NCBI RefSeq assembly: GCF_036321535.1
Contig: NC_087436.1
Span: 53,136,001-53,200,000, forward strand
From: Camelus dromedarius
Lineage: Eukaryota
Direction of reading: 5' to 3'
DNA length: 64,000 nucleotides
Shown piece by piece: positions 1,858-63,506 of this stretch; position 1 is the stretch's first letter; each line of letters starts with the position of its first letter. The notes beneath the pieces were generated by a model that saw only the letters and a program-made list of their open reading frames with translations, did not search any database and was not told the DNA's origin. The position numbers and the translations under genes were made by a program.

Positions 1858-36601
<34,744 letters not shown>

Positions 36602-36795: not shown

Positions 36796-37970
36796 GGTGG
36801 GCTGTAGCTTTCAGTCTCTCACTTTTTATTTTTATTTTTTCCCAGAAATGAAAACCAAGAAAATTTTCACTTTGGGAGCTAAACTAAACCAGTCTACCAT
36901 CCTATAAATTCAGAAGTACTGAGAGACTGTCAAGGATAACTGGTGGCAATACTTTTCTGCTCAACACGTAATCGTCATCACGCCTGTAACATTAAATGCC
37001 CATCTTCACATTTACACTTTATGTAGGAGGGCAGTGAGGATTTGCAAATTCAGATAAATTTGATTGAATTTTATTGTCTTGGATGGTCATCTGAATTTTT
37101 TTATACCATGTGCATGCTATTATTTAAAAAAAATCACTCTGAATTTTAGGATTTAAATTTAAAATTTTTAAGTTGTACCACCACCAATCACTTCTAAATA
37201 ATGTTAGAACAGATAAAACTTTCTCATTTCTAAAACCTAAATGATTTTCCTTATGTGTGAGTCAGCATCATCTATCTAACACCCTAGTAGGCCGTTGAGT
37301 TTAACATTGTAGACCTCTAGCTCTATGACAAGAAACACTTGTCTGAGTCCCCGCACTGGCTGGCTGGAGTCCCTTGTGCTTTCTGAATCCCATTTCTAGG
37401 AAGAAATTCAGAGAAGGAATTCTAGCCCTTAACATTTCTACTATAGAAAATTAACTAGAAAACTGCTCTAGAACTAAAGCAAATACCCTAAAGGCTAAGG
37501 CCACACTAACTAAACCAACTCTTCTCTTTGGAAACTTCTGCACGAGAACTCTGATATGAACAAACCTACAAAAACGAGGCAGTTTAGGGGACACGTGGGA
37601 TGTTTTGGCAAAGGGAGGAACAAAGTGCTGGCAAATAGCTAATTGAATGAAACTGAAAATACTTACAGCCATGTTTACACATAAAATGGGTTTAAGAAAA
37701 TCTACCCTCATCTCTCTTCAAACCTTTTTCTAGAATCCTAACCTTAAGGTTAAATCTAGACAACTCAGTTAAAAGATAGTCAACATGATAGACAGGGCCA
37801 TACGACGAAAGCTAAAATTTAAAAATCTCCGAAGTCAAGCATATTTCCTCTTGAAATAAGTTTTTATATAAAGAACTGAAATGTGAAAATTGTCTTTATC
37901 ATCTATTGAGATTAGAACTTAGTTTGCTATCATGTTTTATATATAAATCATGGCTAAAGTACCTATACAA

Positions 37971-38084
37971 TAAGCATGACTGGGGCATTGTGCTCGACAC
38001 CAGAAATTCCAGACTGTAATTGACTATACTTCAATAAAAAAATTAAATAAAACAAAAAATAAAGACACGACATTAGAAAAAAAT
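37971..38084 (+). mobile_element. short L1 3'-end insertion with extended tail
   Basis: gcatgactggggcattgtg...gactatacttcaataaa; TSD GTACCTATACAA at 37959-37970 / 38085-38096. Confidence 0.8.
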
Positions 38085-39763
38085 GTACCTATACAAAAAT
38101 AAAATAGTTACGACTATTGCCTTAAAGTTATAAATATTAAGTTTTCCTGGTGTAAATAGAAAAGGCCATTCTTAGAAAAATAACTGTTGAAGAAATATAA
38201 GCTTTTATGACTAGTAGGCATTATAAATACAAGATAATGTGAAAGTGCTTTCTTGCTTTATATTTGAATAGATTTCTATGTAGTCCCACAATTTCTTCAT
38301 TACATGCACAGTGGTATGAAGCCACTTAACTTTACATACTTATTTATTTAAATTAAGGATTAGTTTGAATCTTATGAGAACTGTCTTTTGTATTTCCATG
38401 TTTAGGCTCACAGTTATGTGTCTGGGCTTAGACTATGTGGGGCATGATACGTGTCTCTTCGGGTAAAGTACCATTCGTTGTCAGGTGTTTACCAGAGTCC
38501 AACCAATAAAAAGCATATCACTATTGCCTAACAAAATAAACGCTGTTTCATTCGAGCATTTGCTTTCCACTAGAAAGCTTCTATGAGTCACTGTATTAAG
38601 TAGTCAGTTCAACACAAAATGTTCAAATAAGATTGCTTCTGTTGTTAATAAATAGTATCATCCTTTTATATTTTGCTTGTAACTTTTTACAAAGACATTT
38701 GAAAGACTTCAGATAAGGATGCCAAACTCTTTCTATATTCAGTGAATTCTGTGTACCAAAGGAGAGGCATTCTCCTCTGCTGCTCTGTTGATCAAGCAGC
38801 ACAAACAATGTACAGTATATATGAGAAATACCTTCCAAAACTCATCAGCTATTTTACACGGCATGTGAAGCAGGACAGAAGCACAGCACACAGTACAAAG
38901 ATAACAAGAGCTCCCATCTATGGGATGGTTCCTATGTACAATACACTATGCTGAGCTCTTCACATTGTCTAGGGTATCCTAACAACAATTATTTCACAGA
39001 TTAGATTTGATTGATTTAGTAAAATGATTTAAGGACTATAGAAAAATAAACCTTGAGACCTAGATCCAATATTAGAGATAAAAAATATTAGAGATAGGAA
39101 GTGGAAAAATGAATTTCTTATGGATGACATAGAATTATTAATTGAGACTATCTTTTAACAAATCTGTCACACTTTCGTATGGAGGCTAACAGAGCACTTG
39201 ATTGTTGTTGTTAGATGTTCCAGGCTGAACAAATTGCTCCGGGGGGGAAATTGATCTGTGCTAGCCAATTTAAAATCAAATAATAGATTTTAAAACAATG
39301 CTATTGCAATGAAATTTCATTGGTAGTACATGACACTGTGGAATATATACTACTATTTTGCAGTGATAATAAGAGACAATGAAGTGAAGATGGCTGACTA
39401 ATTCCAAAGTACAGTTGTGTTTCTGTTGAGTGTCAGAGGCTGTTAGGAGCTAACTCTTTTCCTAGATTAGAGGATTGAATGAACTTCACCCCACTAAAGG
39501 TTGGAAGGAAATGTATCACCCTACTAGATACAGATAAGGTAAGTAAGAATGTATGATCGCTATAGAGGGAAAAAAAAGTCTTTGTAACATCAGAACACTC
39601 TACTCTGTTCAAGAAAAAAGCACATTAATGAAAAAAAGTTTTTTAGAGGGACTCTTCAAGTTATCCCTAAGTGGTCATAATAAAGACTAATACTATTTTC
39701 GATTCAGTGATGGAGTTAGCATTTTCAAAGAATCCTGTAAAAAAATATTGATAGGTTAAAAAT

Positions 39764-39904
39764 ATAGTTTGTCCTCTGTATTGGCAGATACAAAGCCAGG
39801 GGATACCCAGGAGGGCCAACTGTAAGGGATTTGAGCATCTGTAGAATTTGGTAACAGCAGGGATCCTGGAACAAATCCCACAAGGATACTGAGAGAAGAC
39901 TGTA
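39764..39904. mobile_element. TcMar-Tigger (MER2-like) MITE remnant
   Basis: Degenerate terminal inverted repeats tagtttgtcctctgtat ... gatactgagagaagactgta with TA flanks. Confidence 0.5.
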
Positions 39905-40358
39905 TTCTTAAGAAGTGATGATCTCTTTTGTACCAAGACAAAAATTATAGGCAAATACATGTACTATTTTATAAGGTTTTATTTAAGAATTCTCTTTGAG
40001 AAAATAAAAATGCACTAAATACATTTCCTTAACAAGAGTAAATGAGACTTAGGTTTGAAACACTTGGAAACTTAAGACTCTCTAAGAAGGACAGTCATTT
40101 TTCCAAAATGGAGTTATTAACCAGACTTTACCTTCACCTCCCACCCCTCCACACACATATATTTGACAACAATAAAAAAATCCTTATGGGTCAATAATAG
40201 TCACCCTAAAAGGAGTCTAACTTTACACTATATTTGGCCACACAAAATTGAATTTCTAACATTTACAGGAGAGAATTCATGGCTTTATTTCCATAAACTA
40301 TTATAAAGAAAGCAAAACTTAAATTTTGATCAGAATCATTTTATTTACTAAGACGTTC

Positions 40359-40828
40359 TGTTACCAAGCCCAAGTTCATACCGCTTGTGACACAACAGGC
40401 CAGTAAGTCAAGGAGTTCTTGGAGCAAGGAATAGTGACTTTATTCAGAAAGCCAGCAGACTGAGAAGATGATGGACTAATGTCCCAAAGAACCATCTTTC
40501 CTGAGTTAGAATTCAGGTTCCTTTTATACTAAAAGGAGGGAGTGAAGTCAAACATTTCCTGGTTCCCGTGGGCCTCTGAAGGGGATGTGTTAATTTCTTC
40601 CTTCCTGCAGTCATTTGCAGGTGGGCCTGGTCAGGATGTTTCTTGTGAGCCAAATAAAGGTAATTTAGCTTAACACTCATTACCTGGGTGGCAAGCTTCC
40701 CAGAAATGGGCCATTATAATTTAAGCTTATAGCCAATATCCCTTGAGTGATTAACAAGCAATAGAAAACAAAGGTTAAAGTAAAAGAACAGATTCAATAT
40801 GGAGTCAGGTTTGTTCTTCCCTATTAAA
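40359..40828 (-). mobile_element. ERV1-type solo LTR
   Basis: About 470 bp with a TGTTA terminus, minus-strand TATAAAA (40522-40528) then AATAAA (40439-40444), GACTCCATATTG near the 5' end, 4-bp flanks GTTC/ATTC. Confidence 0.7.
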
Positions 40829-42509
40829 ATTCCAGAGATTTCTCATATAGCCTGCATCCAGTTACTCTCATTATTAATATCTTACATTAGTGTGGTGTAA
40901 TTATTATTACTGATTGCTGTATTAACTAAAATCTATACTTTATTTAGATTTCCTAGGTTTAAATCTAATGCTTTTTTTCTGTTCCAAGATCCCAACCAGG
41001 TTACAATTCAATTGTTCATTTCTGGTAGATAGGAAATCAATTGATTTTTGTCTCTTAACCTTGTCACTTGTGACCTTGCTATAATCATTTATTAATTCCA
41101 CAAGGGGTTTCTTTTGTTGACTTTTTTGGATGTTTTTCATAGACAATCATGTCACCTGAGAATAGTTTTACTTCTTTAATTCTCCTTTCTTCTTGTTGCA
41201 CTAGCTAGCACCTTCAGTGTAAGTTGAATATATATGTGTGCTCCTTACATTTCATATTCTTTTCTGAGTTCTGTGACACCTCTTCAGATCTTTTTTCCAA
41301 TCACTTTATTTCTGAGTTTTTGTTTTATTTTGTTCTATATTCTATCATTAAAAAATTTTCTCCTGTTTTGAAATATTGGGTTAGTTTCCATATGCTTTTT
41401 TCCTGCTCCATATTCTTTTTTATTATAACAGCTTTAAATAGGGTTCAATTATTGTTCTTATTGTGGTATGTTTTTAGGCTAAATAAGTTATTCTACACTT
41501 TTAAGAGGTAGGAGTGGGTAGAATAGTTCTTCTGGCTTCCAGAGCTTCCTTTTCTGATATTTTCATAAAATGACACCTATGTATCTTGGTCATTTCTTAG
41601 CTCTGTCTCCTTTTCCTTTTCTCCCACTTTTATTTGAACTTTTCCTTTGCCTCTATTGTACCTGTCCTGTTCAATTTGGATTCCATTCCCAGAAGTTTCT
41701 CCTTAGTGGGAGCTCAGGTTTATTAAGTTTTGAGAATTCATAGACCCCAATACCCCTCTGGCACTTTCGGACTTTCCTGCTTGTCCTTTTATACTCATTC
41801 TGAAATTACAATCTGTCAGTTTTGCTGCTACTTTCATATTGATCTCCCTTGCTTTTCAGTGAATACCTGTTGGCAGCTTGAGATCTTCCCACTCTCATGG
41901 CCTTCAGGTGCTCTGCTGCCATCCCACTGTTTCCTCCTACACAGATGCTGATACTAAGTTGGTGGTTTGCTCCCTTCTGCTCACATTTTGAGCTTTATGG
42001 GGATTCCTTTTCTTGTAGCCATGATTTGTTATTATTGTCGCTTTTTTATCCTAGATGCTCTACCTGCTGTATGAGGAGGTTGAGACTACACTGCCTCCGT
42101 AGTCATCTTCCTAGTCTTCTATATTCATGTACTACTTAGGAGGGGGAAATGAGATATTTTTAAAAACATTAAAATTTTTTTTCTATATTTTTGAAGTCAA
42201 TCCAAGTTGAAATAATTATAGATAGGTTGATTCTGCCTCTTAGATGCCTTTCATATCATTTTTAAAAATTAGTTTCTTTTTGGTTTTAGCCTGAAGTTAA
42301 TGTACTCACAAGTGTAACTCTATTCCCACAACTCTCCAACCTGCTGAAGAGCACTCTCAGACTTAATAAAACATCAGACCTAGGCTTAAAATAATTTGTG
42401 ATGACTGCCCAATGTTTTCAGGCCAAGCATCTTGGAGGAGCTCATAATTTTATTTATTACCATATTTTTGTGTCCTAAAATTCTGGTTCATCTTTCTCAC
42501 TCTACAGTC

Positions 42510-42830
42510 CAATTTAACAAACTGGCTGCCAATTGTCTGAATGTGGTCCAAGACATGTTTTGTTTAGCCTGCTCAGTATTTAAACACAAATAAAATAGTT
42601 GCCAACACTTAAAAATCATATTTCACATTAAAAACAAACAAACAAAAAGATTTCCAGCTGCTCTTAAAAAATTGAGATCTGATGGCATTAGGCCCACATT
42701 ACTACTTAGAACTTGTACCCTGATTAAACAGAGAATATGCTCTCAGGCTTGTGGCACTTTTCTCCTAGATAGCTTCTCTCATTTACCTTCCAGTCCTAAT
42801 AAACATTATAGGTTTGTAACCCAGGGTCTA
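42510..42830. mobile_element. hAT-Charlie (MER102-like) remnant
   Basis: caaactggctgccc...gacatgttttgtttagcctg resembles the MER102 left end as recalled. Confidence 0.45.
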
Positions 42831-43729
42831 GCATCTCTGATTCCAACCTCTTAGGTTGGCTTAAAGGACCACATACATGCTGATAACTTCTACTTAGCTG
42901 TCCTGCAGACTCCCCAGACCCACATATTCAAAATGAAGCTAATTTTTTTCAAAGCTTAACTTTCTTCCACTATTCTCCAAATGACCCATTTAACAGAATT
43001 ATATTCCTACAGTTGTCTAAATCAGAAAAATCTTTAGGGTTATTCTTTCCTCCTCCTTACTCATCCTACCCACAGCTTTTCAGTCATGTACCAAACTATG
43101 ACATGTCTTTGCTTTCCCCGTTCCCAGTATTTTAAATACTTTTCCTTTCTTGAGATCTGTAAAACTCCAATTTAAATAATTTCCAAGATGGAGCAAATTA
43201 TTCAGTTTCTGAAACTACATCCCCTGCCTCCAGGATCATTTAGTTGCTCCTTTCCATGTACAGGCTTCTCAAGTACATTATATGTTGTATGGTATTTAAC
43301 ACTGGCTCTCCCACTAGTCTAGAGATTCCTTAAGAACAGAGATCATGATTTCATTATCTCTGTGTAAACAGTACTAAGACAAAAAGCATGGAACTCAATA
43401 AATGTGCCAAATAAATACATGAATTTTACAAATCAGTGAAAATAAGATTATTTCATACCATGATTTTACCTTCCTATACTTTCTATATGCTTTCTGTATC
43501 TTTGGTTAAATTGTCCATTTTTTGCTGGTGCTTGCTTTGGATTGATACTAGAATTATTTTAAATTTTTGCACCCTATGGCTATAAAGTTCAATGGCTATG
43601 TCAAAAGAAAACATATTGACCCCACTGATAAAATATGAGGGTTTTTAAAGTAACTTAAAATTTTTGTTTTAAATATCTAAGGAGACTGAGTATTAACTGA
43701 AAAAATATACATAATTATTCATAAAACAG

Positions 43730-44010
43730 ATCCCTGTGGGGCAACTGAACAGCTGTTGAAAGATTTGGCATATCATTATGCCAGCCTGAGTTTAACGACC
43801 TACATGTGAAGGGCTACATATCCAATTACTAATCCTTCCTCAGCTACTCTTTGGCCTGATATGGATACAGCTGAAAAAAGATGCCCTACTAACAGATCAG
43901 AAATGGATCCAGACTTCCTTGCCAATGCTCAGTTAAAAGATCTTTTGGATTTGAGATAACGAAGAAACAGAGTGATCTACAACCATGTTACAGCTGACAT
44001 ACTTTTTCAA
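43730..44010 (+). pseudogene. putative decayed coding exon of an unidentified gene
   Basis: GC step relative to AT-rich flanks, cag| ... |gtaaaa boundaries, 93 codons with two stops; product not recognised. Confidence 0.35.
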
Positions 44011-44799
44011 GTAAAATTTGATGGTTTAAAGCAAGAGTGGCTTCAGTTCTGTAACTAAATTTAGAGAAATTTTTAATTCTTTTAGAAAATTCAAATTATG
44101 AATTTAATTTTCTATCCATTAAAACCTTTAAACATGTTAAAATGTTTTCAAATATCAAGAATACTTTAGTTCAGAGCTCTTTTCATACTGAGATGGCTGT
44201 CTTCTATTCATTGACTCAAACCTCATTCTTTTCTTCAAATTCTGAAATAATCATCTATTAGAAGTAGGACCAAATCAAAAACTAAATAGAAAACGACAAT
44301 CTACCAGATTCTGTTTCAGTTCTCCCTCAGTTGACTTGATCTATATATAGCAAAAAGATTACATAAGGTCAAGTATTACAATGAAATGTCACTTGGTGTT
44401 TTGCAAAATATATTAAAAAATAGTTCAAGGAATGAATGGAGAGTAAAACGCAAGTAAGCGAGAAAAAGCTTAAACATTCTAGATTTAAACGCCTCTTATT
44501 AGGGATTTGATTCAGTTTTTAAATCTAATTTTCCATTTCAGTTGTGTAAAATCATGTGATACTGACAACCCTCTGTATTAATTATAAATAGTTCAGGCAA
44601 GAGATGCTTTCCTCTCATCTCCAACACGGAAGAATTAACAGCTCTTCAGCAGTGTTTCGCATTTTTAATTTTTAAGAGTAGTAATATCTTAACAGCCCCT
44701 GCCATCTCCACAGGAATAAATGAATGAATATATACCCACAGATACACACTCGCTTTCAAGTGGGGAAAAAAAAACAAAAAACCCACAAATCAGGGAACT

Positions 44800-45900
44800 A
44801 CCGCCCACTCTAGAAACCCTAACTCCAAGCCCCGCCCCACATAAAATCCCTCCCCTTTCTCCCACTGCAGGTCCGCAGTTGGCGCAGCTAGTTGACGTAA
44901 GACGTAACCTCCGTAGCATCCTACGTGCAGCTACCGTCTCTGCCTCTGGGAGTTGAAGTTTCCGAAACAGGACCTTCTGGAGTGGTAAAGACCGCTCTGA
45001 AAAGCGTGCTCTCAGGTTCCCCGACAACTTCTCCGCTCGGTAAGTCTCTTGGCACGTAGGCTAGTGCTCGCCTATCCCTTGGTATAATCCGGGCGCAAAA
45101 GGAGCGCGTGCTGGTGCCGCCTTCCACTACCAATAAGGGCTTCCGGGGGTGAGGGAAGAGGGGTTTTGGGAGCGGCTGCCTAGCCCCAGCTCCTGGCGGA
45201 AGTGACGTCGGAGGGAATGCGCCCTTGCGGCTCCCCTAGCAGCTTTCTCATTCGTTAGCTGCATTTTAATCCCGCCTCTGGAGTGTGTCCGCCTGCGGGT
45301 GGCCTGGAGGGTAGGAGGGGAGGCTTGCTGTCCACGTTTGTTTGCTGGTCGGGATCCGGGCCCTAGTGTGTGAGGAGTGTGAGTTTCTCAAGAATAAAGG
45401 GAGAGGGAAATCTGGACCCTGAAGGGCCAGAAAACGAGTTGTGGTTCTGCCACTGGTGGCTAGAGACAGTGGGCAAGTCGCTCTACCTCTTTAAACCTGC
45501 CTTACCTCATCTCTTCAACGAGGGACTGCCGTCCCTGAGCGCTCTGAAATGGAGGGGCCAGGGGAGAGTTGCTGCAGGTGCTGTTAGGCCCCATGGTGGT
45601 GAGCTGAGGACGATTTTAAGAAGACCGAGGTGTTACTTGATTTCACTGAAATGTTTTATGTTGAAATTCGGGATTTTTAAAAATTTTAGCGATATAAAGA
45701 GTATAGCAAAAGATGACAATCTCAGTTTTTGTTCGTTGTAAATCCTCCACCTCCCCCCACTCCAGCCTGACCCACCGCCCCAAGGGCCAGATAGCTTTCG
45801 CCGTTGCGGATTTGGCCCGCGCGTTTTAAAAAGCATATTAATTCACTGTCGCTGTCAGCTCATTTAATTACGTTCGGCAGTTACTCCAACATTCATGTGA
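44800..45900. promoter_or_regulatory. TRMT10A: CpG-island promoter of TRMT10A, head-to-head with MTTP
   Basis: Abrupt GC and CpG enrichment; GC box 44830-44838, TGACGTAA 44893-44900, ETS-CRE CGGAAGTGACGTC 45197-45209. Confidence 0.85.
44900..45039 (+). other. TRMT10A: TRMT10A candidate non-coding first exon (5' end approximate)
   Basis: Strong donor TCG|gtaagt at 45040 inside the CpG island; a second donor AGT|gtgagt at 45379 suggests an alternative first exon. Confidence 0.6.
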
Positions 45901-47984: not shown

Positions 47985-48318
47985 TTTTATTTTATTTTAT
48001 TTTTATTGACGTACAGTCAGTTATGATGTGTCAATTTCTGGTGTATAGCACAATGTTCCTGTCATGTATATACATACGTATATTTGTTTTCATATTCCTT
48101 TTCATTAAAGGTTATTACAAAATATTGAATATAGTTCCCTGTGCTATGCAGAAGAAACCTGTTTTTTTTTAATCTGTTTTTATATATAGTGGCTAATGTG
48201 CAAATCTCAAACACCCAAATTTATCCCTCCCCCCACCCTTTCCTCAGTAACCATAGGATTGTTTACTAAGTCTGCAAGTCTGTTTCTGTTTTGTAGATGA
48301 GTTCATAGTATCCTTTTT

Positions 48319-48370
<52 letters not shown>

Positions 48371-51300
48371 TTAGATTCCATATATGAGTGATATCATATG
48401 ATATTTTTCTCTTTCTGGTTTACTTCACTTAGAATGACGATCTCTAGGCCTATCCATATTGCTGCAAATGGCATTATTTCATTCTTTTTTATGGCTGAGT
48501 AGTATTCCTTTGTATATAAATAACACAGCTTCTTTATCCAGTCATCTGTTGATGTACATTTAAGTTGCTTCTATGTCTTGACTATTGTATATGGTGCTGC
48601 TATGAACATTGGGGTGCATGTTTCTTTTTGAATTAGAGTTCCCTCTGGATATATATCCAGGAGTGGGATTGCTGGATCATTGTTTGAGTCTGTAAGTCTG
48701 TTTTTAGTTTTCTGAGGAATCTCCACACTGTTTTCCATAATGGCTGCCCCAAATTACATTCCCACCAACAGTGTAGGAGGATTCCCTTTTCTTCACAGCC
48801 TCTCCAGCATTTATCATTCATGGACTTTTGAGTTATGGCCATTCTGACTGGTATGAGGTGATACCTCCTTGTAGTTTTGATTTGCAATTCCTGATAATTA
48901 ATGATATTGAGGATTTTTTTCATGTGCCTATTAGCCATTTGTATGTCTTCATTGGAGAATTGCTTGTTTAGGTCTTCTGCCCATTTTTGGATTGGGTTTT
49001 TGTTTTTTGTTACTAAGTTGAATGAGCTGTTTATATATTCTGGAAATTAAACCTTTGTCAGCTACATAATTTGTAAATATTTTCTCCCATTCCATAGGTT
49101 GTCGTTTTGTTTTGCTTATGGTTTCCTTTGCTGTGCAAAAGCTTCTAAGTTTAATTGGGCCCCATTTGTTATTTTTTGCTTTTATTTCTATTGCCTGGGT
49201 AGACTGCCCTAGGAGAACATTGCTAAAATTTATGTCAGAGACTATTTGCCTATGTTTTCTGTTAGGAGGTTTATCGCGTTTTGTCTTACATTTAAGTTCT
49301 TAAGCCATTTTGAGTTTATTTTTGTGTATAGTATGAGGGAGTGTTCTAACTTCATTGATTTACATGCTGCTATCCAGTTTTCCCAACACCACTTGCTGAA
49401 GAGATTGTTTTTCTCCATTGTATATTCTTGTCTCCTTTGTCGAAGATTAATTGACCATAGGTCTGTGGGTTTATTTCTGGGCTCTCTATTCTGTTCCATA
49501 GATCCATATGTCTGTTTTTATGCCAATACCACAGTATTTTGATTACTGTATCTCTATAGTATTGTCTGAAGTCTGGGAGGGTTATTCCTCCAGCTTTGTT
49601 CTTTTTCTTCAGTATTGCTTTGGCAATTCTGGATCTTTGTGATTCCATTTAAATTTTAGGATTCTTTGTTCTAGTTCTGTGAAAGATGTCCTGGATAATT
49701 TGATACGGATTGCATTAAATCTGTAGACTGCCTTGGGCCATTTTGACAATATTAATTCTTCCAGTCCAAGAGCATGGGATATCTTTCAATTTCTTTAATC
49801 ATCTTTAATTTCCTTAATCAGTGTTTTGTAGTTCTCCATGTATAAGTCTTTCACCTCCTTGGTCAAATTTATTCCTAAGTATGTTATTGTTTTGGATACG
49901 ATTTTAAAAGGTATTGTGTCTTTACTTTCTTTTCCTACTAATTCATTGTTAGTGTAAAGAAATGCAAGTGATTTTTGTATGTTAATCTTGTATCCTGCTA
50001 CCTTGCTGAATTCTTTTATCAGCTCTAATAGCTTGTTTGGAGCTTTTAGGAATATATATTCATGTCATCCACATATAGTGACAATTTTACTTCTCGTCCA
50101 ATTTGGATCTCTTTTATTTCTTTTTCTTGCCTAATTGTTGTGGCTAGGACTTTCAAGTCTATGTTGAATAGAAGCGGTGTGAATGGGCATCTTTGTCTTG
50201 TTCTAGATTTTAGTGGGAAGGCTCTCTTCTTGGTTTCACCGTTGAGTATTATGCTGGCTGTGGATTTGCCATAAATAGCTTTTATTATGTTGAGATATGT
50301 TCCCTCTATACCTACTTTAGTAAGAGTTTTTGTCATAATTGGTGCTGAATTTTATCAAATGCTTTTTCTGCATCTGTTGAGATGATCTTGTGATTGTCCT
50401 TTTTGTTGTTGTTGATATGGTGTATCACATTGATTGATTTGCATATGCTGAACTATCCTTGTGTCCCTGGGATGAATCCAACTTGATCATGGTGTATGAT
50501 CTTTTTTTATGTGCTGTTGGATTCCGTTTGTTAATATTTTGTTGAGGATTTTTGCATCTATGTTCCTCAGTGATACTGGCCTGTAATTTTCTTTTTTGGT
50601 AGTGTCTTTGTCTGGTTTTGGTATCAGGGTGATGATGGCTTCCTAGAATGAGTTTGGAAGTACTCCTTTCTCTTCTGTCTTTTGGAAGAGTTTGAGAAGG
50701 ACTAGTATGAATTCTCTGTATGTTTGGTAGAATTCCCCAGTGAAGCCATCTGGTCTTGGACTTTTGTTTTCAGGGAGGTTTTTTGTTGCTGATTCTATTT
50801 CATTTCTAGTGATTGGTCTGTTCAAGTGGTCTGTTTCTTCCTGATTCAGTCTTGGTGGTCTGTATGTTTCCAGAAACTGCTCCATTTCTTCTAACTTGTC
50901 CAGTTTGTTTCCATATAGTTGTTCATAGTATTCTCTTATGTTTTTTTGTATTTCTGTCATACTCTTTGTAATTTCTCCATTTTCCTTTCTTATTTTGTTT
51001 ATTTGTATTCTCTTTTTTTTTCTTCTTGGTGAGCCAAGCCAGATGTTTGTCAGTTTTGTTTAGTCTTACCAAAAAACAGCTCTTGTTTTGATTGATTTTT
51101 TTCTTGTTTTTTAAAATCTCTTACTTTACTTATTTCCTCCCTTGTCTTTATTATTTTCTTCATTCTGCTGACTTTAGGTTTTTGTTTGCTCTTCTTTTTC
51201 TAATTCTTTTAGGTGATAGGTTAGGTTGTTTATGGGGATTATTCTTTTTTTTGAAGAAGGCCTGTATCACTGTGAACTTCCCTCTTAGGACTGCTTTTGC

Positions 51301-53573
51301 TGCATCCCATAGATTTTGTGTGGTTGTGTTTTCATTGTCATTTGTCTCAAAGTATTTTTTACTTTCTTCTTTGATTTCGTCATTGACCTATTGGTTTTTT
51401 TAGTAGCATGTTGTTTAATCTCCATGCTCTCGTTTTTTTCTCCTTTTGTTTTCCTGTGGTTGATTTCTAGTTTTATGGCATTGTGGTCAGAAAAGATGCT
51501 TGAAATAATTTCTATCCTCTTAAATTTGTTGAGGCTTCTTTTGTCCACAAGTACACAATCTATCCTAGAGAATGTTCCATATGCACTTGAAAAGAATGTA
51601 TATTCTGTTTTTGCAGGATGTAATGCCCTAAAATTATCAACCAAGTCCAACTGTTCTGTTGTGTCATTTAGTATCTCCATTGCCTTATTGATTTTCTGTC
51701 TGGAAGATCTGTCCAATGATGTTAATAGGGTGTTAAAGTCTCCTATATGATTGTGTGCCCATTAATTTCTACCTTTATGTCTGTTAGTATTTGCTTTATG
51801 TATTTAAGTGCTCCTATATTGGGTGCGTATATGTTAACAAGTGTAATATCCTCATCTTGTATTGCTCCTTTAATCATTACATAGTGTCCTTTATCTTTTT
51901 TTGTGGCCTTTGCTTTAAAGTCTGTTTTGTCTGAAATCAGTATTGCTACTCCTGCCTTCTTGTAGTTTTCATTTGCGTGAAATATATTTTCCCATCCTTT
52001 CACTTTCATTCTATCTGTGTCCTTCACCCTATAGTGGGTCTCTTGTATGCAGCATGTTGTAGGTTCTTGTTTCATTATCCAATCTGCCACTCTGTGCCTT
52101 TTGATTGGAGCATTAGTCCATTGACATTTACAGTAATTATTGATAGATGTGGGGGTTTTTTGCCATTTTGAACTTAGTTTTCCAGTTGATTTGATATTTC
52201 CTCTTTGTTCCTTTCCTTTTCTTTTTCTTTTTGTGGTTTGATAATTTTCTTTTGTATTATCTTTGTTTCTTTTTGGTTTTTGTGACTCTATTTTGATTTC
52301 AATTTGTGATTACCCTGTTTTTCAAGTATATTAACCCATTACTGTATCTGTTTGCTTTAAACTGATAGTCATATAAGCTCAAACACATCCTAAGAAGAAC
52401 AAAAACAGAAGAGTAAATCTATATTTTCCTGATGCCTTCTCCCACCTTTAATGATTTCGATGTCCTCTTTTTTATCTTCTTGTTTATCCTGTTGCAACTC
52501 ATTGTAGTTACCACATTTCCAGTTATGATTTTCTCCTTTCTGTAGAGTCCTGCTTCTTTTCTATTTAGAGTAGATCTTTCAATATTTCTTTTAGCATAGG
52601 TCTAGTATTGCTGACTTCTTTTAATTTTTGCTTGTCTGTGAAATTCTTTAGCTCTCTTTCTATTCTAAAGGTTAGCTTTGCTGGATAAACTATCCTAGGT
52701 TGCAGCTCTTTCTCATTCAGGACTTTGAATGTATCTTGCCACTCCCTTCTGGCCAGCAGTGTTTGTGTTGAGAAATCAGCTGAAAGTCTTATGGGGGTTC
52801 CATTGTAAATAACTCATCGTTTTTCTCTTGCTGCCTTTAGAAACATTTCTTTATCTTTAACCTTGGTGATCTTAATTATATGTCTTGGTGTAGGTCTTTT
52901 TGGCTTCTTCTTTTAGGGGGCCCTCTGTGTTTCCTGTACTTGGATATCTGATTCCTTCTTTAGGTTTGGGAAGTTTTCAATCATGATTTCTTTAAATACC
53001 TTTTCAGCCCCCTTTGATATTTCTTCTCTTTCTGGGACCCCTGTTGTGCGTAGCTGGGCAAACTTTACATTATCCCATAAGTCCCTTATATTGTTTTTAC
53101 TGATTTTGTTCTGATTGGGTGACTTCTGTTACCTTGTCTTCTAAGTCACTTATTCATTCCTCTGCATTATCTAGTCTGCTTTGACTGCCTTTAGCTAGGC
53201 TCTCATCTCAGCCATTGAGAGTTTCCTGTTTTTACTTCTCTTGTTCTTTTAATTGGGAGTAGTTCCTGTGCTTCTTCATTTTACTCATAGCTCTCTGGCA
53301 CTGTGGATTATGGAGTATCAGTTATCTACTGTGGTCTTGAAGGGCTTTTTTTTTATTTTAAAGAAGATGCGTTCCTGTGTAAACTGTACATCTCTGATAA
53401 TTTTGTCTAAGGTTTGTTTTTAGTATGGATAGTTGCCATGTTTTTCTTCTGTGTTTGTTTGCTGTTACCCCTTTGATTGGGGGTGTGACTGATGTTGTGG
53501 TGATCAGAGCCTACTCTGGTTGTTGAGCAAACCTCCTTTTTGTTCTATGGTTATCACAGTCCTGATGGGGCCA
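47985..53573 (-). mobile_element. LINE-1, about 5.6 kb, decayed, in TRMT10A intron 1
   Basis: ORF2 endonuclease (CCIQETH, GVAILISDK) and RT (PLLFNI...YVDDM) fragments; tail read as T-run at ~47985; TSD TCCCTATTTT at 47979-47988 and 53574-53583. Confidence 0.93.
48317..48371 (+). repeat. (TTTC)n microsatellite inside L1
   Basis: About 13 perfect TTTC units. Confidence 0.95.
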
Positions 53574-55589: not shown

Positions 55590-55721
55590 GGGGGAGAGTA
55601 TAGCTCAGTGGTAGAGTACGTGCTTTGCATGTACGAGGTCGTGGGTTCAATCTCCAGTACTGCCATTAAATAAATAAGTAAATAAATAAATAAACCTAAT
55701 TAACCCCAAAAAACAAAATTA
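55590..55721 (+). mobile_element. tRNA-derived SINE, Vic-1-like (camelid)
   Basis: GGGGGAGAGTATAGCTCAGTGGTAGAG (A box), GGTTCAATCTCC (B box), AATAAATAAACCTAATTA tail; TSD AAAAATAACAG(T/C)AC at 55575-55588 / 55722-55735. Confidence 0.85.
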
Positions 55722-56283: not shown

Positions 56284-57031
56284 GTATGTTTCAAAATGCA
56301 TATATTCTACCCCTATTCAGAGATATGGAATATGGAATGTTGGACCTTGCATAGACCTTTGATATATTAAAAGTAATTGTGTTAATTAAAATTGGGGCTA
56401 TGCGTATTGTTAGCTAACACTGTCAATTGACTGCTAAAATTGTATGTGTTTTTGAATTCTTTTTAACAATGTTGATGAATTTACACTACACACTTTTCTC
56501 ACCCAGAACCTATTGTGAGTAGCTGCACAATTTCTGAAACAACTGATTTAGATGAGGGATAGCATCCATGTCCTAGATATGGAACAAAAATAACCACCTC
56601 AGAAAGGTCAAATTTGGGCCTCAGAAGATCTCAAATTTTACCAAAAGAACTATTACAGATTTTGGTGAGAGCAGTTGGGCTGAAGCTATTACTATATACA
56701 GACAAAATTTACTGGGAGAAAATAAACTGTAGTTGATGTACCTTAGAGAAAAAGTATATGAGTCTTTTTCACCAACAATTTTCCTTTTAATATGGTTATA
56801 AATATTACTCAAAAGTCATGTAGGTGAAGAATGATAAAATTCATCACAACTCTCAAATTTAGTATAAAGTTTTCTTAGTACATATAATGTGGTACCTACC
56901 AGTAATAAATGAAATTACTAGTATAGCTAGGATTTGTGTAGAAAGCATTATATTATTTTTGCAAATTTATTTCTTTTGTATCTAAAGCTTTTAGATAGAC
57001 CATATAAAATTGCTGGTATTTGAGAATTTTT

Positions 57032-60000
57032 ATTTATTTTTATCAAAGTATGGTTGATTAATAGTGTGTAATTTTCAGGTGTACGACAAAGTGATTCACT
57101 TATACATATACATATATATCTTCTTTTTCAGATTCTTTTCCATTATAGGTAATTATGAGTTATTGGATATAGTTCCCTGTGCTATACAATAGGTCCTTGT
57201 TTATCAATTTTATGTATAGTAGTGTGTATATGTTAATCCCAACCTCCTAATTTATCCCTCCCCACAAGCCCCTTTCTCCTTTGGTAACCATATTTTGTTC
57301 TTTATGAGTCTATTTCTAGTTTGTAAATAAGTTTACTTGTATCTTTTTTTAATTTTAGATTCCACATATAAGTGAAATCATATTTGCCTTTCTCTGTCTG
57401 ACTTCACGTCATATAATAATCTCATCCATGTTATTGCAAATGGTGTTATTTCATTCTTTTTTATGGCTGAATAATATTCCATTGTATAAATATACTATAT
57501 GTTCTTTATCCATTCACCGGTCCATGGACACTTAAGTTGATTCCGTGGCTTGGCTATTGTAAATAATACTGCTGTGAACATTGTGGTGCATGTGTCTTTT
57601 CGAGTTAGAGTTTTCTTCAGATATATGACCAGGAGTGAGATTGCTGGATCATATGGTAACTCTGTGTTTCATTTTTTAAGGAACCTCCGTACTTTTCTCC
57701 TGTGGCTGCAGCAATTTACATTCCCAATAGTGTAGAGGGCTCCTTTCCTCCACACCTTATCCAGCATATTATTTGTAGACTTTTTGATGATGGCCATTCT
57801 GACTAGTATGAGGTGATACCTCATTGTAGTTTTGATTTGCATTTCTTTAATAATAAGCGATGTTAAGCATCTTTTCATGTGCCTGTTGGCCATCTGATTA
57901 TCTTCTTTGTAGAAATGTCTGTTTAGGTGTTCTGTCCATTTTTTGGTTGGGTTGTTTTTTGATACTGAGCTGTAAGAACTGTCTGTGTATTTTGGAAGTA
58001 AATCTCTTGTTGGTCTCATCCTTCACAAATATATTCTCCCATTCCGTAGGTTGTCTTTTTGTTTTGTTTATGGTTTCCTTTGTTGTGCAAAAGCTTTTCA
58101 GTTTAATTAGGTCCCATTGGTTTATTTTTGCTTTTGTTTCCATTTCTAAAAGATGGATCCATAAAAATAGTACTGTGATTTACGTCAAGGAGTGTTCTGC
58201 CAATGTTTACCTCTAGGAGTTGTATAGTATCTGGTCTTACCTTTATGGCTTTAATCCATTTTGAGTTTATTTTGTTATATGGTGCTAGAGAATGTTCTAA
58301 TGTTATTCTTTTACATGTTGCTGTGTGGTTTTCCCAGCACCACTTATTGAGGAGACTGTCTTTTCTCCATTGTATATTCTTGCCCCCTTTGTTGTAGATT
58401 AATTGACCATAAGTGCATGGGTTTATTTTAGGGCTTTCTATCCCATTCCATTGGTCTTTGTATCTGTTTTTGTGCTAGTTCTACACTGTTTTGATTACTG
58501 TAGCTTTATGCAATAGTCTGAAGTCAGAGACTTTGATGCCTCCGACTGTTCTTCTTTCTCAAGATTCTTTTGCCTCTTCAGGGTTGTTTGTGTTTCCATA
58601 CAAATTTTCAATTTTTTTGTTCCAGTTCTTTGAAAAGTGCCATTGGTAATTTGATAGGGATTGCATTGAATCTCTCTATTGCCTTGGGTAGTCTGGCCGT
58701 TTTAACTAATGATGCTTGCAGTCCAGGAACACAATATATCTTTCCATCTGTTTGTGTTGTCTTCAGTTTCTTTCATCAGTATCTTATATCAGGGTACAGG
58801 TCTTTTGCCTCCTTAGGTAGGTTTATTCCTAGGTATTTTATTTTATTTTATTGATAGGATAGTAAATGAAATTATTTCCTTAGTTTCTTATCCTGATATT
58901 TCATTGTTACTGTATAGAAATACAACAGATGTCTGTGTATTAATTTAGTATCCTGCAACTTTCCTGAATTTATTGATAAATTCTAGTCGTGTCTTTAGGA
59001 TTTTCTATGTGTATAATAGCATGTCATCTGCAAACAATGACCATTTTACTTCTTCTTTTCCAACGTGGATTCCTTTTATTTCCTTTTCTTTTCTGATTGC
59101 TGTGGCTAGGATTTTCAAAACTATGCTGAATAAAAGTGGTGAGAGTGGACACCCTTGTCTTTTTCCTGATCTTAGAGGAAATGCTTTCAGCTTTTCCCCA
59201 TTAAGTATGATGTTAGCTGTGGGTTTGTCATATATGGCCTTTATTATGTTTAGGTATGTTCCCTTTGTGCCCACCTTCTGGAGAGTTTTTATCATAAATG
59301 GATGTCGAATTTTATCAAAAGCTTTTTCTACATCTATTGAGATGATAATATGGTTTTTATTCTTCAGTTTGTTAATGTGATGTATCACACTGATCAGTTT
59401 GCAGATATTAAAAAATCCTTGCACCCTGCGATAAATCTACCTTGATCATGGTGTATAATCCTTTTAATGTATTGTTGGATTTGGTTTGCTAATATTTTGT
59501 TGAGGATTTTTGCATCTGTATTCATCAGTAATAGTAACCTGTAATTTCCATTTTTTGTGATATTTTTCTTTGCATTGCTATCAGGGTGAATGGTGACCTC
59601 ATAGAATGAGTTTGGAAGTGCTCCATCCTCTTCAATTTTTGGAATAGTTTCAGAAGAATATAGACATCACCGTTTTTCTAAATGTTTGGTAGAATTCACC
59701 TGTGAAGCCATCTGGTCCTGGACTTTTGTTTGTTGCGGGTTTTTTAATTATTGATTCAATTTCATTACTGGTAATTTGTCTGTTCATATTTCTATTCCTT
59801 CCTTCCTAGTTTCTTGGGAGAGTCTGCCTTTCTAAGAATTTGTCCATTTCTTCTTGGTTGTCCATTTTATTGCCATATAGTTGCTTGTAGTAGCCTCTTA
59901 TGATCCTTTGTATTTCTGTGGTGTTGGTTGTAACTTCTTTTTCATTTCTGATTTTATTGATTTGGGCCCTCTCCCTTTTTTTCTTGATGAGTCTGGCTAA

Positions 60001-63000
60001 AATTTTATCTGTTTTGTTTATCTTATCAAAGAAACTAAAAGCTAGTTCTTTTGACTTATTTTTTTAATCTCTATTTTTTTTTAATTTCTGCTCTGATGTT
60101 TATGATTTCTTTCCTTCTGCTAACTTTGGGTTTTGTTTGTTCTTCTTTTTCTATATGTTTTAGGTGTGAGGTTAGGTTTATTTGAGATTGTTCTTGTTTC
60201 CTGAGGTAAGCTCATATCACTGTAAACTTCCCTCTTAGAACTGCTTTTGCTGCATCCCATAGATTTTGTATTGTCCTGTTTTCATTTTCACTTTTTCTAG
60301 GTATTTTTAAAATTTCCTTCTTGATTTCTTCAGGGAACCATGGGTTGTTTAGTAGCATATTGTTTAGCCTCCACATGTTTGTGTTTATTGCAGTTTTTTC
60401 TTGTAGTTGATTTCTAATTTCATAGTGTTGTGGCTGGAAAAGATGCTTGATATGATTTCAGTTTTCCCAAATTTACTGGGAGTTGTTTTGTGGCCTAGCA
60501 TGTGATCTGTTCTGGAGAATGTTCCATATACACTTGAAAAGAATGTATTCTGCTGCTTTCAGGTGGCATACTCTAAATTATCAATTAAGTCCCCTTGGTC
60601 TCTTGTATTACCTAAGACCTGTGTCTCCTTATTGATTTTCTGTCTGGATCTTCTGTCCGTTCATATAAGTGGGTGTTAAAGTTCCCTACTTTCATTATGT
60701 TACTATTGATTTCTCCTTTTATGTCCATTAAGATTTGCCTTATGTGTTGAGGTACTCCTGTGTTGAGTGCTTATATATTTACAGTTGTTATAGCATCTTC
60801 CTGGGTTGATCCCTTGGTCATTTTGTAGTGTCTTTCTTTATCTCTTATAACAGTCTTTATTTCAAAGTTTATTTGTCTGATATAAGTATTGCTACTACAG
60901 CTTTCTTTTGATCTCCATTTAAGTAGAATACCTTTTTCCACCCCCTCACTTTCAGTCTGTATCTGTCTCTAGATCTGAAGTGAGTCTCTTGTAGGCAGCA
61001 AATATGAGTCTTGTTTTTGTATCCATTCAGCCAGTCTATGTCTTTTGGTTGGAGTATTTAGTTGGTTTACATTTAATGTAAAATGTAATTAAATTACATT
61101 TAATTTATTGGTATGTATGTTCTTATTGCCATTTTGTTAATTGTTTTGGATTTGTTTTGGTAGATGTCTTTTTTTCCTTTTTTTCTTTTGTTCTCTTGTG
61201 ATTTGATGACTATCTTTAGTGTTATGTTTTGATTGCTTTCTTTTTTGTGTGTATATATATTATAGATTATTGGCTTGCAATTACCATGAGGTTTTGGTAT
61301 AGCAGTCTGTATCTATATATGATTGTTTAAAATTGCTGATTTCTGAATTTCAAATGCATTTTAAATACCCTGAATTTATGCTCTCCTCCCCTCATGATTA
61401 CTGTTTTTGATACCATATTTTACATTTAGTTGTTTTGTGTATCCCTTAAGTGCTTATTGTGTATACAGATGATTTTACTAGTTTTGTCATTTAACCTTCT
61501 TCCGAGTTTGTGCATGGATGATTTCCTACTTTTACTGTGTATTTACCTTTACCAGTGAGCTTTTCCATTTTATAGTTTTCTTGTTTCTAGTTGTGGCGTT
61601 TTCTTTTCTACTGAGAGAAGTTCCTTTAGCACTTGTTGTAAAGCTGTTTTTGTGGTGCTGAATTCTTTTACCTTTTGCTTATCTGTAGAGCTTTTGATTT
61701 CCCCATCAAATTTGAATGACAGCCTTGCTGTTAGGGTATTCTTTGTTGTAGGTTTTTCCCTTTCATCACTTTAAATATATAGTGCCACTCCTTTCTGTCT
61801 ACAGAGTTTCTGGTGAAATATCAGCTGATAACCTTATGAGAGTTCCCTTGTATGTTTTTATTGCTTTTCCTTTGTTGCTTTTAATATTCTGTCTTTGTCT
61901 TTAACTTTTATCATTTTAATCATACTATGTCTAGGTTTTGTTCTTAGGGTAATCCTGTATGGGACTCTGTGTTTCCTGGACTTGGTTGACTGTTTCCTTT
62001 ACCAAGTTAGGGAATTTTTCAGCTATTATCTCTTATTAAATATTTTCTCAGGCCCTTTCTCTCTCTCTTCTCCTTCTGGGACCCCTATAATGCAAATATT
62101 AGTGTCCTTGATGTTGTCCCAGAGTTCTCTTAAAGTGTCCTTCTTTCTTTTCTTTCTTTTTTCTTTTTTCCTGTTTTGTGGTAGTGATTTTTACTACCCT
62201 GTCTTCTATCACTCGCCTGTTCTTCTGTCGCATTTAGTTTACTGTTGGTTTCTTCTACTGTGTTTTTGTGCACCCATTCTTCTCCCAAATTCTCTGAACA
62301 TCTTTATGACCGTTACTGAAAACTCTTTCTCAGATAGATGGCCTATCTCCACATCACTTAGTTCTTCTTCTGAGATTTTGTCTAGAACATATTCCTCTGC
62401 TGCCTTGTTTTGTCTAAATTTCTATTGTATTTTTATGTTATGTAGTAGGTTAGTTACATTTCTTGACTTTGGAGAAGTATCCCATTGTAGGAGATGTCCT
62501 GTGCATCCCAGCAGTGAACTCCCCTCTCGTCACCTAAGGACTAGGGGCCAGCTGGTCCCAGGGTAGTCTGGTCTGAATTTTGGACTCATTTCAAAGGCTG
62601 CAGGATCATAGTTTTCTTGCTCCTGGTGTCTGTTCCCAGGTAGGTGAGACTGGTCTAGAGGCTTGTGCAGTCCTCCTGGTGGGTGGCGCTGGTGCCTGCC
62701 CACTGGTGATGGATCTGGATCCTGCCCCTGTGATGGCAGGTGGCTTTGGGCTTAGGAAATCTTTAGAGAGCCTGTCTACTGATGGGTAGGACTGTGTTCC
62801 CACCCAGTTATTTGTTTGCCTGAGGTGTCCCAGCACTGGAGCCTACAGGCTGTGGGGTGAGGCCAGGTACTAATGACCCAAGCAAGATATCAGCCTGGAG
62901 GAGCATTTGTGCAGATGAATACTCCCCAGTATATTGGCCACCAGCTTTTCGGTTTCTAGAGTGATCCAAAGCTACCTCTCACCTCCCCAGGAGACCCTCC

Positions 63001-63506
63001 AAGACCAGCAGGTAGGTCTGGCCCTGGTTTCTATGAAATTACTGCTTTTCCCCTTGGTCCAGTACATGGGATTTTGTGTGTGCCCTTTAAGAGTGAGGTC
63101 TCCATTTCCCCCATTCCTCTGGAGCTCCTACAGTTAAGCCCCACTGGCCATATAAACCAAATACCCTGGGAGCTCCTCTTCTTGATGGCAGACCCCCAGG
63201 CTGGGGAATCTGCCATGGGGCTCAGAGCTCTCACTTCTATGGGAGAACTTATGCAATACAGTTATTCTTCAGTTTGTCAGTCATCCATCCCGGAGGGTAT
63301 GGGATTTGATTATATCGTAAGTGTGCCCCTTCTACCACCTCATAGTGGTTCCTTCTTTACGTCTTTAGGTGTAGAATATCTTTTTTGGTAGGTTCCAGTC
63401 TTTTTTATCAATGGTTGTTCAGTAGTTAGTTGTGATTTTGTTATGTTCATGAGAGGATGTAAGCTCAAGTTCCTACTATGCCATCTTAATCCAGTAATCT
63501 CTCACT
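57032..63506 (-). mobile_element. LINE-1, about 6.5 kb, near full-length and decayed, in TRMT10A intron 2
   Basis: RT fragment ([13 protein letters not shown]...LFADDM), 3' end and tail at ~57032, AAGATGGC-type 5' start near 63487; 19-bp TSD with 2 mismatches (57013-57031 / 63507-63525). Confidence 0.93.

Follow-up and report, generated by a model that had tools for sequence, protein, structure and literature searches.

A conserved segment between MTTP and TRMT10A in the dromedary genome that may be the fossil of a coding exon

The 64,000-nucleotide stretch of the dromedary genome analysed here (Camelus dromedarius, assembly GCF_036321535.1, contig NC_087436.1, positions 53,136,001 to 53,200,000 of the forward strand; hereafter the window) carries a minus-strand gene that we take from its peptide to be MTTP and a plus-strand gene that, also from its peptide, is presumably TRMT10A. 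A preliminary description of this DNA proposed that the interval between them holds five plus-strand segments of a dead, unannotated gene. Judged by its alignments, segment 4 is certainly old and constrained, and we see a roughly even chance that it is a fossil coding exon whose frame was still open in the ancestor shared by the sampled lineages and is interrupted here by two stops. The five-exon gene as drawn is unsupported. The coordinates of the segments, their ag/gt ends and their translations are exactly as first described, and the chain of five is phase-consistent. The features that carry the argument are as follows.

36541 to 36601, minus strand: first coding exon of presumed MTTP
43708 to 43956, no strand assigned: conserved, indel-poor core in a five-lineage alignment, comprising eight codons 5' of the proposed acceptor and codons 1-75 of segment 4
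43730 to 44010, plus strand: segment 4, candidate fossil coding exon of 93 codons with weak acceptor and weak donor, assessed by splice sites, composition and relatives
43807 to 43809, plus strand: premature TGA at codon 26, tryptophan in five of five related lineages
43957 to 43959, plus strand: premature TAA at codon 76, tryptophan in the one lineage that reads in frame there
about 44800 to 45400, upstream of plus-strand TRMT10A: CpG-rich stretch, presumably the TRMT10A promoter

The interval had been called intergenic, a label that is doubtful because in human it is an intron of the MTTP transcripts starting at exon 1B (MTTP-B/C), which lies 10.5 kb upstream of exon 1A (PMC4891672). The same report describes additional upstream minus-strand MTTP exons within the interval in human and mouse, and a mouse report places exon 1B 2.7 kb upstream (PMC4714884). 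The camel interval is likely to be an MTTP intron on the minus strand.

Segment 4 is a GC island flanked by AT-rich DNA, and its frame runs beyond the proposed donor to a TAA at 44056-44058. Its composition, scored with generic codon tables (the splice-site tables used below are generic as well), reaches 0.108 per residue, in the top 1% of 4852 overlapping GC-matched, stop-poor windows. The other five frames score at most 0.012, MTTP exons range for comparison from -0.02 to 0.16, and first and second codon positions use G as those of MTTP do. The consensus donor of segment 3, 4.2 kb upstream, matches in phase. The two in-frame stops preclude a full protein from segment 4 in the camel genome.

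A phmmer search over 1.84 billion representative proteins returned six matches to segment 4. Four are short unnamed reading frames called on assembled reads, at 62-77% identity; the other two, one a hemicentin-like protein from a frog and one an unnamed repeat protein, matched in 11-12 stretches at 32-38% identity, and we discarded them as repeat artefacts. A fifth lineage, at 85% identity, came from a profile search (5 matches among 3571 candidates). In a frameshift-aware alignment the relatives' fragments extend into the flanking DNA of the window, and because these flanks are shared we regard the relatives as the same locus in other mammals; they are known from translations of DNA-derived frames. 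Identity over codons 1-75 is 56/65, 46/60, 37/50, 39/53 and 43/51 in the five lineages (74-86%).

At every position of codons 1-104, one or more of the relatives have a sense codon. The TGA at codon 26 likely arose on the window's own lineage; at codon 76 a second lineage appears frameshifted in a way that fits a tryptophan codon minus one base. When a never-coding sequence was simulated, two stops in 93 codons went back to a stop-free ancestor in 17/1851 and 27/1694 cases (0.9-1.6%), and one stop in 75 codons, the version that applies if trust is limited to codons 1-75, in 133/1569 and 197/1836 (8.5-10.7%). The frame that was open in the ancestor would also be the protein-like one, a coincidence that favours a coding origin roughly 10-100-fold. 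The chief alternative is that there was never a gene: 43708-44050 would be conserved for a non-coding, regulatory role, some 1 kb away from the TRMT10A / MTTP-1B promoter and within the long first intron of MTTP, with a frame open by chance and the other four segments chance ag/gt picks. To this account, plausible though somewhat short of an even chance in our view, the top-1% composition of the ancestrally open frame is an obstacle, as is the low frequency (3%) at which a GC-matched stretch at a fixed place lacks stops for 93 codons in at least one of its six frames; the sole deletion inside the aligned core, which is in frame, also speaks against it.

Four of the five relatives end or shift within segment 4 at the protein level, each at a different place; what kinds of lesion these were can be proposed from the translations, and P0004, for one, would have been ended by a 13-nt deletion. 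P0011 is without lesion over codons 25-93 and has one private residue in 51 columns, and P0013 and P0014 differ at three of their first 8 residues and at none of the next 76. Together with the consensus donor kept in segment 3, this would suit a gene that is not dead everywhere, that is, an unannotated, low-expression spliced transcript (a small protein gene in some mammals, a long non-coding RNA or alternative TRMT10A 5' exons here). The two stops in the camel frame argue otherwise, and an intact gene should have been annotated in some vertebrate and matched at more than 100 bits, which no annotated protein did; we consider such a transcript decidedly unlikely. Twelve RNA or possibly-RNA contig sets share 5-43% of the interval's words, which is no evidence of transcription or splicing.

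Constraint on the segment is seen in both gaps and substitutions. Over codons 1-75 the five lineages align with a single in-frame 15-nt deletion. In P0009 there are 12 gaps in 345 nt upstream versus that one deletion in 165 nt of segment 4 (P 0.014, or 0.08 with the upstream gaps merged to 8). Nine of 75 window residues are missing from the four more distant rows, where 18-27 would be expected under neutrality; the change in the window lineage is slower than neutral with P ≤0.007 for any neutral distance of at least 0.12, the neutral distances being assumed values.

Several observations weigh against a coding past. Every relative came to light through an open frame resembling the query, so the set is biased towards few stops and indels, and the polarity of codon 76 is based on one in-frame lineage. 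At the splice sites proposed for segment 4 there is no fall in conservation: residues 5' of the acceptor are identical at 8/8, 5/6 and 6/8 positions and those after the donor at 10/11 (small samples), codons 76-93 are the least conserved, at 9/18 identical, and only the 5' edge near 43708 forms a boundary. The relatives share the A-rich acceptor, which means that the ancestral site was already weak. Taken together, the 42 distinct amino-acid changes are no more conservative than neutral ones (mean BLOSUM -0.21 versus about -0.46, P 0.09-0.18). Neutral evolution would be expected of a gene that died at the placental radiation, and the window lineage does not show it. Conservation that runs past both splice sites and neutral-like substitutions are what a non-coding element would show; such elements are far more numerous than unknown dead exons, and the segments were selected at the first stage from very many windows.

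The search for a living relative points the same way. Among annotated proteins of any organism in the 1.84 billion representatives, segment 4 has no homolog, as the never-coding account would predict, and this counts because the library includes vertebrate RefSeq proteins (the frog entry surfaced). An intact syntenic homolog, whose absence the preliminary description had named as refuting its proposal, was likewise not found among annotated proteins. Segments 2-4 match 0 Pfam families, and comparing short words with those of longer proteins yielded no match either. Candidates that were tried and rejected comprise Pfam matches for the relatives (weak, mutually inconsistent and below cut-off), PDB matches (best E 0.034-2.2, unrelated to one another), ESM Atlas matches for two relatives (0.75 and 0.85, lead level only) and one Rfam match under the gathering score. 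Of 29 and 598 pattern matches in JGI metagenomes, none was a related locus. Literature on the MTTP-TRMT10A interval (pseudogene, bidirectional, synteny), judged mostly by title, held nothing on the interval, and a chicken gene list, restricted to named genes, names no gene between TRMT10A and MTTP (PMC13329495). The portions examined of the human PhyloCSF lists (PMC6886504) have no entry at the locus, a further point against a coding origin. Within them, the chr1-8 part of table S3 has one chr4 row, at 82.3 Mb and not MTTP; the supplements except files 1 and 8 gave 0 matches to the gene names; and in the first half of S6 (4.0 of 8.0 million characters) six coordinate prefixes from assumed human coordinates gave 4 matches, none at the locus; the other half could hold an entry.

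An old transposon of low copy number or a retrocopy fragment, if it had inserted not long before placentals radiated, would likewise explain why the ancestral frame was open, the splice sites are weak and the changes look neutral. The segment is single copy by DNA and protein searches, no transposase, polymerase or parent protein is found among the phmmer matches or in Pfam, and its change is slower than neutral; we rate this origin highly unlikely.

Four considerations bring the balance for a coding origin of segment 4 back to about even: conserved non-coding elements are abundant, the segments were selected at the first stage, conservation ignores the proposed exon boundaries, and no homolog turned up. 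Under a coding origin, the ancestor that the sampled lineages share would have had an open frame here, as one exon of a gene since lost. The gene would then have been broken, four of the five relatives bearing distinct lesions of their own. The sub-neutral change since then would reflect residual constraint at the DNA level, probably regulatory, beside the shared TRMT10A / MTTP-1B promoter; alternatively, the gene may have died late and separately in different lineages.

The remaining four segments of the proposed chain, all on the plus strand, are as follows.

38398 to 38462, plus strand: segment 1 (acceptor at 38406), with an in-frame ATG at 38398, GC-rich, with moderate splice sites, from splice scores and GC content
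38695 to 38864, plus strand: segment 2, with poor acceptor and donor, seen in one related lineage
39466 to 39538, plus strand: segment 3, 73 nt, exon-like by splice scores, with the consensus donor AAG/GTAAGT and a top-3% acceptor; too short for a search for relatives
44170 to 44280, plus strand: segment 5, unsupported, with a top-70% acceptor and a composition below the null mean

Compared with a null of 60 10-kb stretches drawn at random from the contig, most of the five segments are no better than chance picks; the null may include real exons and L1 pieces and is conservative for that reason. Their stop counts are equalled by 10% (segment 4), 17%, 34-68%, 58% and 76% of random frames, and stop-free frames of at least 93 codons are present in 57 of 60 random 8-kb loci. 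Among random AGs the acceptors of segments 1-5 rank in the top 8%, 32%, 3%, 38% and 70%. A site pair of segment 3 quality occurs in 13/120 random strands, one of segment 1 quality in 119/120 and one of segment 4 quality in 120/120. A crude phase-aware gene model, which recovers most MTTP exons, picks segments 1 and 3 only, at a low score. GC contrast against random stretches is in the top 0.2% for segment 4 and the top 1.8% for segment 1, both GC islands, and protein-like composition is unremarkable in segments 1, 2, 3 and 5 (ranks 14-87%). The features above chance are probably those on which the first description selected. Segments 1-4 are single copy, DNA and protein searches giving significant E values at their own locus only, and the five segments are non-repeat as described: none overlaps a repeat detected against 872 kb of other genomic DNA.

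Segment 2 is where the claim of no indels within segments fails. The search gave one cluster of two related sequences (1/1 candidates). In the relative, 22 nt absent from the window follow 38710, the frame shifts by 2 nt at about 38733 and a +10/-1 pair comes later; the alignment has five internal gaps, probably four events. The stop just inside the acceptor appears, from the relative's residues, to be common to both. The flanks are as conserved as the segment itself, with 12/12 upstream codons identical, as a non-coding element would have it. Because of the extra nucleotides, the frameshifts and these equally conserved flanks, the acceptor and first codons of segment 2 as drawn are unsupported. 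The extra 22 nt contain an AG in 84% of weighted back-translations, with a median score in the top 10%; the score depends on unknown codons, its 5th-95th percentile running from the top 26% to the top 2% of random AGs. One might speculate that the real acceptor lay there and that its loss is a lesion of the camel genome. No good donor was found for segment 2 by splice scoring, as the preliminary description had conceded. On the plus strand the segment 2 frame is open for 83 codons at 38703-38951, well past the proposed donor, and the relative, combining the frames differently, has no stop for 126 codons.

Segment 5 lacks a donor and is probably not an exon. An alternative plus-strand frame across it is open for 68 codons at 44055-44258, longer than the frame first chosen, and has no score against a BTB profile. 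It is possible that segments 1 and 3 and part of segment 2 were upstream exons of the same gene as segment 4, and segment 5 and the segment 2 boundaries as drawn are probably wrong. Of the dead gene first described, the conserved, indel-poor segment 4 with its ancestrally open frame stands as a possible fossil exon, while the five-exon model, with its noise-like fifth segment, does not.

The core of segment 2 seemed to us to resemble Rho GTPases, and segment 1 to have P-loop-like spacing, and we tested both with profiles built from the camel genome's own Ras, Rho and BTB genes. The core at 38736-38864 aligns with the strand-4/helix-3 region of Rho at 6.3 bits, reached by 1 of 5906 random stop-free tiles; the HHalign probability is 6.8%, and with an earlier four-sequence Rho profile 16/60 random loci scored as well somewhere. 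At two RhoB-matching positions the relative has leucine and asparagine, where the window differs. Tested for the P-loop pattern GxxxxGK[T/S], segment 1 gets -2.0 bits, less than 2013 of 5906 random tiles, and has no PDB match; a switch-II motif was not found, and the best BTB score in the interval, 4.8 bits, was reached by 36/60 random loci. Because the family was chosen post hoc from many, the Rho match is not significant, and the resemblance of segment 2 is only a lead. We think it unlikely that the locus holds the fossil of a multi-exon gene, possibly a divergent Rho-like GTPase, that was intact in early placentals, disappeared independently from most lineages, has no annotation in any vertebrate and maybe survives intact in the P0011 lineage.

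Around these segments, the minus strand has a good splice acceptor (score 5.3) at 43733, at the start of segment 4, a candidate alternative MTTP 5' exon; three short mouse MTTP primer sequences had no meaningful match in the interval. This acceptor would suit a non-coding element in an MTTP intron, as would the intronic position in human and the further minus-strand exons of the human and mouse interval (PMC4891672). A repeat of about 470 nt at 40355-40830, present in at least 39 further copies in the genome (80-86% identity) and resembling what we take to be a solo long terminal repeat, lies in the gap between segments 3 and 4. That gap makes up 4.2 of 5.9 kb, so the position of the repeat is uninformative about an intron. 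Short repeat fragments occur at 37960-38060, presumably an L1-like 3' tail, and at 39585-39762 and 39823-39893, both older pieces. Within TRMT10A introns there are two long, strongly T-skewed insertions at about 48000-53500 and 57030-63460, which look to us like antisense L1 elements. A tRNA-type short interspersed element, of a type that we take to be camelid-specific, lies at about 55590-55720.

If segment 4 is a fossil exon, a mammalian gene without a catalogued living relative was apparently missed both by annotation and by a genome-wide PhyloCSF screen, and constraint would be acting on a dead exon next to the promoter of a disease gene of lipid transport. As a non-coding element, segment 4 would be no more than an ordinary candidate for regulating TRMT10A or MTTP-1B.

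Set beside known classes, segment 4 has the disabling in-frame lesions of a unitary pseudogene (two stops where relatives read tryptophan) and no intact paralog or parent in the same genome; conservation in segments 2 and 4 is not bounded by splice sites, which counts against that class. It is single copy, indel-poor and, on assumed neutral distances, slower than neutral, as conserved non-coding elements are, and has neither the multiple copies nor the element-protein homology of a transposable element. Any likeness to Rho/RhoBTB GTPases would be confined to the strand-4/helix-3 region of segment 2, unlike full members in that P-loop score, switch-II motif and BTB score are absent. The MTTP alternative first exons, human MTP-B/-C (PMC4891672) and their mouse counterparts (PMC4714884), are transcribed cryptic exons of the same interval, but they lie on the minus strand, whereas the segments here are on the plus strand. 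A further parallel is with the unitary pseudogenes recognised through whole-genome PhyloCSF (Mudge et al. 2019, PMC6886504). Each of the listed cases examined has a named coding ortholog in another species, whereas none was found for segment 4; cases such as TMEM274P and crescent are likewise remnants of single-copy exons that carry stops and frameshifts where the ancestral gene stood, with weak or no expression.

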